Notes: generated by a model from the sequence alone, not told the origin. Counted from the stretch's first letter, positions 25,453 to 38,181 are shown. The stretch: DNA of 64,000 nucleotides from an uncultured Chlamydiae bacterium (GCA_963730605.1 CAVSSM010000001.1:160001-224000), one strand, 5' to 3'. Numbers and translations are program-made.

Positions 25453-25481
25453 TTGAAACAATTATGAACATGTGGTATTAT
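25453..25481 (+). promoter_or_regulatory. Probable promoter of the 25.5-38.2 kb operon
   Basis: TTGAAA-17bp-TATTAT with TG upstream of the -10. Confidence 0.55.
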
Positions 25482-25511
25482 CCACCCAAAAAAATAGGAT
25501 TTGTGACTAAA

Positions 25512-26216
25512 ATGGCAATTTCATCAAACTTATTTCTTTGCGAAAACAATCCCCAAAAGAACTTGGAATTGTTAGCCAATTTCAACGCTTCCAATCCAAA
25601 TAACTGCACAACGGAATCTGTTTATAAAAAAGCGCCGAAATCCAAGATTTCCGGCAGCAAGCTGCGTGAATTTTCCTGTGTCGCCGCCGGTTTCACCGCT
25701 TTGACCATCCCGTTCCTTTTTATCGCCCTGAAAGCCTCTCAATGCGGATCGCTGCTTTGGAGAGGAAAAGCGGGGGAAGCCTATAAATGCGCCGAGAAGG
25801 TCTTGGATGCCCTTGCGAGCCCCGTCAACATAATGACCTATATTTCCTTGCTCTCAGGAGTTGCCGTTCTTGGAACGGGAGCCTATGCCGCGGCCCGTTG
25901 GCGCTTCCAAGACAAGACCCAGAGGGAACGGTTCGAATCCCTCGACCGCGAATATTCGCAAGCGGCAGCTACTTTGGAAAACCAGTATAGGACAGCCGGA
26001 AAACAAGAAAAAGAAAAGATCCTAGAGACCGCGCTCAAAATTTCCGACAACGCGAAGCTGATCTACGCTGCTTTACGCGAAGCGGCGAAGATTTCCCACC
26101 CTCAGGCCAATCTGCTGACGGCGAAAATAGCGCGGGCGGCCGAATCCATTATTCTGCAAGAAGAGCGGAACCAAAAACAGGCTAAAGAGGCCCTTTATGT
26201 CGGTCGCCCCGCCTAA
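25512..26216 (+). CDS. Two-TM membrane protein, operon paralog 1
   Basis: TM-C..C-TM hairpin plus helical tail shared with 26197, 36482 and 37414; ATG 25512 follows AGGA. Confidence 0.75.
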   Translation: MAISSNLFLCENNPQKNLELLANFNASNPNNCTTESVYKKAPKSKISGSKLREFSCVAAGFTALTIPFLFIALKASQCGSLLWRGKAGEAYKCAEKVLDALASPVNIMTYISLLSGVAVLGTGAYAAARWRFQDKTQRERFESLDREYSQAAATLENQYRTAGKQEKEKILETALKISDNAKLIYAALREAAKISHPQANLLTAKIARAAESIILQEERNQKQAKEALYVGRPA

Positions 26217-36485: not shown

Positions 36486-37417
36486 CATCTGCCATCTCTA
36501 AACAAAGCGAACCTCCACTCATTTTTCCCAAACTGGAGACCGGCTCGCTCAAAGGTCGAATGATTACGAGACAGGCGGTGGAAAAACCAATGGAAGCCGT
36601 TTGGGAAAAGATTTGCCGCTGGTTTTTGGAATTTGTCCATTGGCTCCAAAGCATTTTCTTTGGCGCTGCCGCTTCTCCTCTGAAAAAAGAACCGGCGCTC
36701 GAACCCATCACCCCGCCGGCTCCCCTTGACACTGCATTTTTACGGCCGAACGATCCCTCTTATAACCTCCGGCGGCTGGGCGTTATGACCTCAAGCAATG
36801 CGATCCAATCAATCGCAACCGTTGAGGTATTTAAGCGGGTGCCCCGCCAAAATGCGATCCGCCTCGGCTACGACGACCCTGTCCATTACCAAACGGCCCT
36901 CGGCGACCGGGCGATTGCGGCGCAAACGGGGCTCACCGGCCTTGCCATTTTTGTCCTTGCGAGAGTCCTGAGGATCGCTTGTCTCCAAGGGCAGAACTCA
37001 TCCGAAAAGGCCCGCGCCTATGCTATTTGCAGTAAAGAGGCCGCCGACTTTTGGCAAAATACCCCTGGGAAGACCGTGCTTGCCGGAGCAGGGCTCCTTT
37101 TGGCCGCTTCCCTCTATGCCCACAGGAAGGGTTGGCTCGGAAAATTCCTTCACGACCCATCTTTGGGCTGGAGGCAGTCCCGGCTTGAAACCCTATTCTT
37201 AACGGCCGCCAACAACCTGAGAGAGCTGTCAAAAACCGATTCCTCTTTGGCAGAGGACTTAGGCAGTCGCATCCAAAAAAATTCCGAACTGATCGAAGCC
37301 ATTCTTCATGTAGAGCTGCAAATCCCGAAAAAGGAGGCCCTAAAACTTACGAATCACTTAAAAGCGGCCTGCCAAGAAGTTCTCGATCCAAATCCTCTTT
37401 TTGAGAGGACGCCATGA
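36482..37417 (+). CDS. Two-TM membrane protein, operon paralog 3
   Basis: ATGA overlap; IACLQ...AICSK loop between two TMs; shared tail. Confidence 0.75.
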   Translation: MTSAISKQSEPPLIFPKLETGSLKGRMITRQAVEKPMEAVWEKICRWFLEFVHWLQSIFFGAAASPLKKEPALEPITPPAPLDTAFLRPNDPSYNLRRLGVMTSSNAIQSIATVEVFKRVPRQNAIRLGYDDPVHYQTALGDRAIAAQTGLTGLAIFVLARVLRIACLQGQNSSEKARAYAICSKEAADFWQNTPGKTVLAGAGLLLAASLYAHRKGWLGKFLHDPSLGWRQSRLETLFLTAANNLRELSKTDSSLAEDLGSRIQKNSELIEAILHVELQIPKKEALKLTNHLKAACQEVLDPNPLFERTP

Positions 37418-38181
37418 GCCTATTAAAATTTTACGGCGCCCTTCCTATCCTTTCGGTCACGTACGGGCTGACGAGCTTTGCCTACCAAAAAATGAAATAT
37501 TGGATCCTCCCTAAACAGCCTGAATGGGACGAGAAATTCGCCTGGCAGAATTTCAAACTGATTTCCCAGTCCAAGCCGGAAGAGATCCAATACCGCGTAT
37601 GTCCTAAGAACATCTCCAGGTTGTCCCCTTATCTTCATCAGGGCAATCTCGGCTTCGATACCAAGGCGGAATGCGACGCCGCCATCGACAGCACTATGCA
37701 ACTCGTCGGGCTTGCTCTCGGAGCCGGAGCTTTCCTCCTCCCGGTCGCCCGCTATTTCACAAGCTGCCTTTCTCAAGGAAGCCTCGGAGTTTGCGTAAAG
37801 AGCGGCATAGAAGATCTATTTTCTTTTTCTGGCTTGAGGCTCTTTGTCGGGGCCTATCTGATTTCCATATTTGCCAATTTCATCATCTTTCCCGCGGTCG
37901 CGCCCCTGATCGTAGACCCCTTACCTCAAGAGCGGCTCCGCCTGCTTGCCGTCGAATATGGGAAAATGCTCAAGGCTTTGCACGAAGTTCTCGACCTTCC
38001 GGCAAACGATCCCAAGTTTATCGAAACGGCAGAGCTTGCTAAATTATTCTTGCGCCTCTCCCCTCACATCGAACAAGAAATTCACAAATCGGCCGCGATG
38101 GACACTCATGAGGCCCAAAGCATCATGCTCCTCCTCAAAAACGTCTGCCGACAAATCCTCGTCAAGCAAGCTTATCCTTAG
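37414..38181 (+). CDS. Membrane protein, operon paralog 4
   Basis: ATGA overlap; TSCLS...GVCVK loop; DP..QERL..L..EY tail. Confidence 0.75.
   Translation: MSLLKFYGALPILSVTYGLTSFAYQKMKYWILPKQPEWDEKFAWQNFKLISQSKPEEIQYRVCPKNISRLSPYLHQGNLGFDTKAECDAAIDSTMQLVGLALGAGAFLLPVARYFTSCLSQGSLGVCVKSGIEDLFSFSGLRLFVGAYLISIFANFIIFPAVAPLIVDPLPQERLRLLAVEYGKMLKALHEVLDLPANDPKFIETAELAKLFLRLSPHIEQEIHKSAAMDTHEAQSIMLLLKNVCRQILVKQAYP

Follow-up and report, generated by a model that had tools for sequence, protein, structure and literature searches.

The window, a 64,000-nucleotide stretch of DNA, covers positions 160001-224000 of contig C1 in the genome of an uncultured Chlamydiae bacterium (G000; 2.2 Mb, 83% complete). 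It contains five plus-strand genes in the order A-B-giant-C-D: gene A (25512..26216, 234 aa), its paralog gene B (26197..26898, 233 aa), the gene of a giant DUF3638 protein (26895..36485, 3196 aa), and two further paralogs, gene C (36482..37417, 311 aa) and gene D (37414..38181, 255 aa). Genes A and B overlap by 20 bp (26197-26216), and the other junctions are ATGA overlaps at 26895, 36482 and 37414, all as the original prediction of five same-strand, coupled reading frames had described. The five frames are whole and match those of a second genome, G003, at 89-97%, with dN/dS values below 1 throughout (0.10, 0.57, 0.32, 0.28 and 0.33). Frameshift-like splits occur in hflX, secA and sctV of the assembly and leave the five genes unaffected. 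The upstream 477-aa ORF, an AAA gene and a Rieske gene were ruled out as parts of the cassette, being absent at the locus in genome G001.

A sigma70/66-type promoter-like site (TTGAAA-17-TATTAT, with TG preceding the -10 element) is located at 25453..25481 on the plus strand. The site proposed earlier is thus present, and G003 and G001 have a TATAAT-like -10 element at the corresponding position; the site is one of 18 such matches (shuffled mean 8.6, sd 3.3), which makes it a weak promoter candidate when taken alone. Gene A has two candidate starts, ATG 25464 and ATG 25512. The second is the likely one, because the promoter-like site overlaps ATG 25464, G003 has ACG in place of that codon, and A-type homologues start near 25512.

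The giant protein carries a Pfam DUF3638 domain (PF12340) at aa 2106-2273 (E 2.3e-13, 50.4 bits against a curated cut-off of 31), in line with the DUF3638-type resemblance suggested earlier. DUF3645 (PF12359), as found in eukaryotic members, gives no match in the giant at E 0.01, and is missing from most bacterial relatives as well. Of 61 related genomes, 23 have DUF3638 relatives, often more than one per genome, and such relatives occur in eukaryotes too. The predicted motor (aa 2058-2866; 33066..35492, plus strand) contains all the quoted motifs, namely the Walker A QEMMVGKGKT (aa 2110-2119), DEAD (aa 2249-2252), a further motif at aa 2690 and the motif VI QAVGRMRK (aa 2723-2730); the Glu/Gln-rich tract follows at approximately aa 2898-2921 (35586..35657, plus strand) and is kept in the clade consensus. 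The G-K pair (G2117, K2118), the D-E pair (D2249, E2250) and Q-x3-R-x-R (Q2723, R2727, R2729) are invariant in 43 of 43 motor rows, and the ATPase therefore looks intact at the level of its motifs.

Modelled with AlphaFold, aa 2020-2900 (pLDDT 89.8, pTM 0.87) are predicted to form two RecA-like domains in tandem, an SF2 fold that resembles SecA most closely and retains motifs I, II and VI; the originally proposed RecA-like tandem is thus reproduced in the model. A Foldseek search with this model retrieves SecA at E 1.7e-10, and SecA throughout the matches listed, to rank 29. In VIA, SecA occupies ranks 1-22 (Z 14.4-18.4), the top match having Z 18.4 over 444 residues with an rmsd of 4.9 Å, whereas DinG, the best non-SecA chain, scores Z 13.3 in the wide search and Z 14.2 on a second look. 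The best structural match, to SecA/SecA2 (PDB 2fsf, 4uaq, 5eul, 6itc and 3din), appears to extend over the clamp-like insertion and the scaffold region, and SecA and the motor share the M-x-x-G-x-GK Walker A, DEAD and Q-x3-R-x-R. The two differ in that identity stays at 11-14% with an rmsd of about 5 Å, and the giant has 2050 extra N-terminal residues.

In the model, a strand-bounded, clamp-like insertion follows DEAD (approximately aa 2261-2543; model 242-524), and a scaffold-like helix of 42 residues follows motif VI (approximately aa 2763-2804; model 744-785). SecY-bound SecA aligns with the motor over 556-571 residues and free SecA over about 400-450, a gain of about 120 residues as judged from these ranges, with the insertion modelled only within the motor. 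Because of the insertion, the helix and the longer alignment with SecY-bound SecA, we infer a motor with a scaffold helix and a clamp in the closed position. A SecA-like clamp points to polypeptide as the probable substrate of the modelled motor.

At the sequence level the giant has no Pfam (SecA_DEAD, PF07517) or NCBIfam SecA match. PF07517 is found in the window genome only at the housekeeping secA locus on contig C11, and an ordinary secA lies elsewhere in all five cassette genomes, which rules out the giant as the housekeeping SecA. Compared with PDB sequences, the motor profile gave weak matches to Cdc6 (E 0.0017), PriA and Mfd (the latter two at E 0.24-0.56), over which the fold search takes precedence. 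Neither a signal peptide nor a hydrophobic segment over the threshold used is seen in the giant.

The first approximately 2100 residues, in which no motif had been recognised earlier, do contain identifiable parts: a decayed protease-like domain and a middle region shared across the family. An N-terminal G-H...N-x-G...Q-x-x-G-x-C domain is found in many relatives, and its order of His, Asn, Gln and Cys resembles that of CE-clan proteases. Among the 59 giants examined, 37 heads could be aligned; both His and Cys are kept in 27, and one or the other is missing in 10, decay being seen in solitary giants too. Residues 225-625 of the window giant (27567..28769, plus strand) are homologous to the intact heads (hhalign 95%, E 2.1e-8), and the His-Asn-Gln-Cys motif is lost in all six aligned cassette-clade giants. 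By this alignment, the window head is a decayed copy of the protease-like head of the family. The intact head has no match among Pfam families or PDB sequences, and its Atlas match to 'YopJ family acetyltransferase' at 0.80 serves as a lead only. His before Cys is also the order in CE-clan/YopJ-type enzymes, as in the passage on Simkania SnCE1-5 that gives H190 and C256 for SnCE1 (PMC10643670); the copy in the window differs in having lost the motif.

The middle region (aa 1060-1800; 30072..32294, plus strand) matches 31 of 35 non-cassette giants and has a TPR-like hairpin close to its end, the TPR matches being weak. Residues 1-225 and 640-1060 are nearly clade-specific, matched in none and in one of 35 other giants, respectively. 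The window giant thus has in common with other DUF3638 giants the Pfam match, the motor motifs, the middle region, the position of the head and a size of about 3000-4700 aa, and differs from them in its missing DUF3645 match, its decayed head, its two clade-specific segments and the paralogs at its flanks.

These paralogs, two on each side of the giant, were originally proposed to be small membrane proteins, which is borne out by sequence comparison and hydropathy. A and B match each other in blastp (E 3e-21), and profile-profile comparison relates AB to C (96%, E 1.2e-9), AB to D (92%, E 6e-7) and C to D (93%, E 4.3e-7), identifying the four at the sequence level as paralogs. In each subfamily, a Cys pair lies between two hydrophobic segments: predicted helices at approximately aa 54-72 and 108-126 with Cys78/Cys93 in A, 67-85 and 129-147 with Cys91/Cys108 in B, 144-162 and 195-213 with Cys167/Cys183 in C, and 94-112 and 140-158 with Cys118/Cys127 in D. 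In addition, A has a C-terminal helical bundle, C a Ser/Pro/Thr-rich N-terminal extension and D an extra hydrophobic N-terminus. The positions P42, C78, C93, D134 and R140 are nearly invariant in the family. A-D are predicted to be two-helix hairpins with both termini in the cytosol and, across the membrane, a loop closed by a disulfide bond.

A profile search of 1.84 billion proteins gives 109 representatives of the A-D family at E ≤0.001 and 88 at 1e-10; profiles were required, as a single-protein search with B (3 of 61 genomes) missed copies of the G088 and G314 types. None of 91 aligned family members has a convincing Pfam match, and A-D themselves give nothing significant against Pfam, NCBIfam, PADLOC and PDB sequences. 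In its AlphaFold model (pLDDT 95), A forms a long hairpin of helices and a bundle at the C-terminus. Foldseek and VIA searches with this model found no clear PDB match (Z 8.3 at best, over 79 residues), a result that does not by itself establish a new fold; in the ESM Atlas the best match is 0.80, to unnamed clusters, and is a lead only.

In a quick tree of 105 rows, from which rows shorter than 185 or longer than 450 aa and three duplicates were excluded, the family divides into clades A (26), B (20), C (26) and D (about 19), reference rows counted, with a seven-row fifth clade and a handful of strays. Clade B, clade C and the core of D have support of 96-100, the A clade 92 and the branch uniting the three labelled A rows 32. 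The copies from G000, G001 and G088 sort by position in the cassette. Moreover, a related family of 420-500 aa is built of two head-to-tail copies of an A-D-type domain (hhalign 98%, E 6e-14, 202 columns) and is present in 8 of 250 genomes, including that of the window. Such fusions fit with oligomer formation by A-D-type domains.

All six readable loci of the giant's own clade, read as DNA, have the paralogs in fixed order. The arrangement A-B-G-C-D (G being the giant) is found in the window, G003, G088 (on two overlapping contigs) and G314, and A-B-A'-G-C-D, with three upstream paralogs, in G001. Locus L116 reads A-G-C-D, with one upstream paralog, a giant of 32% identity and a D gene cut by the contig end. 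The number of small genes therefore varies from three to five. The six loci represent four chromosomal sites in two families and one related clade, not independent origins; in the FastTree phylogeny (the other trees being quick ones) the cassette giants form one clade with support of 99-100, adjoined by P0003 and P0004. Circumstantial evidence, namely contigs of equal length (16,677) for P0003 and the three family members P0115, P0127 and P0128, suggests a seventh cassette, and further C-D pairs likewise.

The cassette is rare. It occurs in 4 of 103 genomes of the window's family, in 3 of 400 in an order sample, in the same 3 of 400 in a phylum sample and in 1 of 129 genomes of G314's family, with G193 left unscored in the order, phylum and two-repeat surveys. 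Every strong small-gene match in the family, order, phylum and G314-family searches lies inside a cassette, and DNA-level matches to A-D in the order and phylum samples are confined to the window's order. Among ten regions fetched from genus- and family-mates, the orthologous site is empty in four (G006, G475, G427 and G483), carries other orphan arrays between dnaA and a CesT gene in two (G424 and G363), and is rearranged or too short in four. The G314 block adjoins a CesT chaperone gene, in the slot that holds the orphan arrays in G424 and G363.

Other DUF3638 giants lack a partner gene at 58 of 59 loci; at only 21 of the first 38 such loci is 1 kb or more of sequence present on either side, and the later loci include two overlapping pairs. 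At the one differing locus, in G306, a fused two-repeat gene lies directly downstream of an unrelated giant, both being absent from the matching G278 region. The G306 pairing was rejected as a second origin because its two closest giants (both in G292) have no such neighbour. Two-repeat proteins lie mostly away from giants (beside one in 1 of 8 inspected regions). Since all six clade loci have partners and 58 of 59 other loci have none, the A-D partners are a clade-specific addition to DUF3638 giants. The dedicated module of the original prediction accordingly stands for the giant's own clade and fails for the wider family. Homologous giants without these neighbours, named beforehand as a finding against the prediction, are indeed the rule in the wider DUF3638 family and are absent from the six readable loci of the clade itself.

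Co-folding of A, B, D and C from alignments of each subfamily gives a score of 0.54, against 0.32 for the best control; runs share at least 81% of their contacts, and partner pLDDT is at least 74. The mark used was reached by 116 of 157 solved pairs and 2 of 215 mismatched pairs, a calibration that fits roughly; 18 of these solved pairs and both mismatches reached it at scores of 0.60 or below, and 0.54 falls where the tool rates predictions as wrong in the majority of cases, except for complexes that are likely beforehand. The co-folded model thus gives weak support to an A-B-C-D complex, and this much of the proposed multi-subunit machine carries over. A heteromeric membrane platform is further suggested because the gene order is fixed, the genes are coupled, the paralogs are position-specific, natural fusions exist, and the genes are gained and lost jointly. 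Two points run against a complex, in that the motor needs no partner in general (58 of 59 other loci) and the number of subunits varies. On balance, the five products probably form a membrane-anchored motor complex, wherever it is located.

In such a complex, the four small proteins would together make up a hetero-oligomeric platform in the membrane, onto which the giant would dock. The giant's predicted SecA-like motor would take hold of polypeptides and pull on them at the membrane or draw them across it, with the dead protease head possibly reused as a binding surface. Our preferred, tentative placement (probability about 0.4) is the host-facing side of the chlamydial vacuole membrane, where the machine would extract or remodel host proteins after type III secretion of its subunits. 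In agreement with this placement, type III SctV is present in four of five cassette genomes, SctJ being found as well, and the N-termini of B, C, D and the giant are Ser/Pro/Thr-rich against the genome background (mean score 0.19-0.23 for B-D and 0.10 for 1060 genome ORFs). In addition, G-x-L-x-G-R, which we liken to chaperone-binding motifs, occurs in 7 of 24 C-type N-termini and in 5 of 1060 ORFs, and the G314 block lies beside the CesT gene in the orphan-array slot. Eukaryotic relatives of the giant carry PF00627 and PF00641, the ubiquitin-binding UBA and RanBP2-type zinc finger domains; UniRef labels eukaryotic members 'ubiquitinyl hydrolase 1'. The A-type N-termini do not conform, with a mean score of 0.07 and none of 22 above the genome's 90th percentile, a shared fold does not show function, and decay of the head is seen in solitary giants too. 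A-D resemble Inc proteins in their two hydrophobic helices, chlamydia-specific occurrence, lack of a conserved domain and predicted cytosolic termini, and Inc identity is putative. The loop-length passage of Dehoux et al. (2011, PMC3048545) gives a rule of under 30 aa, with 3-22 in known Incs, whereas a crude hydropathy window puts the loops at about 35 aa in A, 43 in B, 32 in C and 27 in D, so that D alone falls under 30. A-D further differ from the Incs as presented there in their conserved Cys pair, sequence-conserved family and fixed positions around an ATPase gene. The disulfide, moreover, would fit the periplasm equally well, since DsbB is found in four of five genomes. The long loops, the near-invariant Cys pair and DsbB are what one would expect if the same complex sat in the bacterial inner membrane, its disulfide loops reaching into the periplasm and the giant serving as a cytoplasmic accessory motor exporting or dislocating a dedicated substrate, as in SecA2/SecY2. 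The predicted SecY-bound-like arrangement of the clamp, the translational coupling, the size of the giant and its lack of a signal peptide or membrane segment also favour that location. We rate it as possible yet rather doubtful: SecA works with SecYEG, but A-D are two-helix paralogs for which the model of A gives no clear match to SecY or another channel fold, no conserved cargo gene adjoins the block at the four sites, every one of the five genomes has its ordinary secA, and the DUF3638 family is also eukaryotic and mostly partnerless.

That the genes encode five co-regulated secreted effectors, which travel as an island and act separately with A-D as an Inc-like paralog array, seems unlikely to us. 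The effector-like N-termini of B, C and D, the varying number of upstream paralogs, the two-repeat relatives found beside a giant in 1 of 8 regions and the other orphan arrays in the G314 slot of genus mates would all agree with it. The bracketing order and the overlapping stops and starts are, however, kept at 30-50% identity and at four sites, and position-specific clades of similar size are unlike free tandem duplication; the weakly supported complex model points the same way. Tight coupling on both flanks of a possible effector would also suit A-D as membrane-bound inhibitors or holders, immunity- or chaperone-like, that keep a harmful giant ATPase inactive inside the bacterium until release, and the G306 giant and its two-repeat relative are present together and missing together in G278. 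This is improbable, given that 58 of 59 giant loci are partnerless although many keep an intact protease motif, that the partnered clade lacks the motif, and that no PADLOC match of note was obtained. We give least credence to a membrane-tethered nucleic-acid helicase or translocase. The SF2 motifs, the faint PriA and Mfd sequence matches and the DinG, DEAD-box and RIG-I-like folds at Z 12-14 would allow it, but SecA scores 4 Z units higher, and its alignment is longer by 100-200 residues and extends past the two RecA domains.

The host-side complex has a more far-reaching version, which we consider unlikely: a new translocation machine in the vacuole membrane, in which A-D would provide a pore, or a site of dislocation, with no relation to SecY and the SecA-like clamp motor would pull host proteins off or across the membrane. 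If so, the DUF3638 motors known from eukaryotes, giant viruses and symbionts would gain their first setting defined by partners. A complex of the five products in any location would imply a SecA-type motor working with a non-SecY membrane partner and would add a new membrane-protein family without a fold match; on the host side, it would be a multi-subunit machine assembled from secreted effectors. A precedent for SecA-like domains in predicted effectors of an amoeba symbiont is the single mention of 'SecA-like helicase-related domains' among predicted Amoebophilus effectors (Zhang et al. 2012, PMC3482391), which concerns another phylum and another architecture, in a passage that mentions no membrane partners.

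The gene module appears to be undescribed, the motor family is already catalogued, and the function proposed here is inferred. The titles and abstract openings searched contained no functional study of DUF3638 or DUF3645 and no description of the five-gene cassette. DUF3638 giants occur widely among eukaryotes and chlamydiae, and one giant clade with fixed membrane partners offers a defined five-gene system for expression, purification and imaging. DNA of this kind also occurs in soil. Contigs from four soil DNA runs cover parts of the window, none spanning the whole; those from three runs of one study are at least 99% identical to it, and those from the fourth run, from another study, are 90-99% identical.

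The domain of the cassette small proteins also occurs as two head-to-tail copies in proteins of 420–500 aa. One of these is encoded in the cassette genome G000 (G000:C9:202811-204193, L114/L142), and further two-repeat proteins are found at loci L096-L098 and L153-L158. They are frequent in one genus of family f3, and their genes mostly have no giant gene beside them. The small family additionally contains a well-supported fifth clade (P0103, P0110, P0112, P0113, P0118, P0120, and P0125), the members of which are 300–410 aa long. Locus L154 (G306:C6, 4321-15782) encodes an unrelated DUF3638 giant of 2720 aa, the protease-like head of which is decayed. 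A fused two-repeat gene lies downstream of the giant gene in the same orientation, and another fused gene is located upstream in divergent orientation; the matching region of G278 lacks both the giant and its downstream fused gene. Genome G292 encodes at least seven DUF3638 giants (L161-L163, L170-L173) from several clades, some arranged in tandem, with heads intact in some and decayed in others.

In G424 and G363, genus mates of the cassette carrier G314, the dnaA-CesT interval is occupied by orphan arrays (L188, 784-10837; L189, 6218-13008) encoding proteins of 500–1500 aa with Ser/Pro-rich N-termini. This interval is a variable, effector-like slot adjoining a chaperone gene.

Upstream of the cassette lies an orphan gene (window 23982-25415, + strand) for a Cys-rich protein of 477 aa that has a single hydrophobic segment. 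It is preceded by a strong promoter-like site at 23919 (11/12) and is present in G003 but absent from the G001 locus. In a 540-aa protein (22273-23895, − strand), an AAA domain (Pfam E 6e-20) lies C-terminal to a membrane segment, a layout reminiscent of eukaryotic ATAD3; this protein has a paralog at G000:C1:636165-637562. Its gene adjoins that of a Rieske oxygenase with a sterol-type KshA_C domain (21119-22177, − strand), through which host sterols could possibly be used.

Downstream, hflX (window 41594-42927) appears to be split into frame-shifted pieces, as do sctV (G000:C1:340694-342602) and secA (G000:C11:52615-54187) elsewhere in G000. hflX is unbroken in G003, and the splits in G000 are likely assembly indels. 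Two AT-rich orphan ORFs of 477 and 306 aa (window 43741-46145, − strand) both contain coiled-coil stretches, and the 306-aa product shows a weak DnaJ-domain match close to its C-terminus (E 7e-6).
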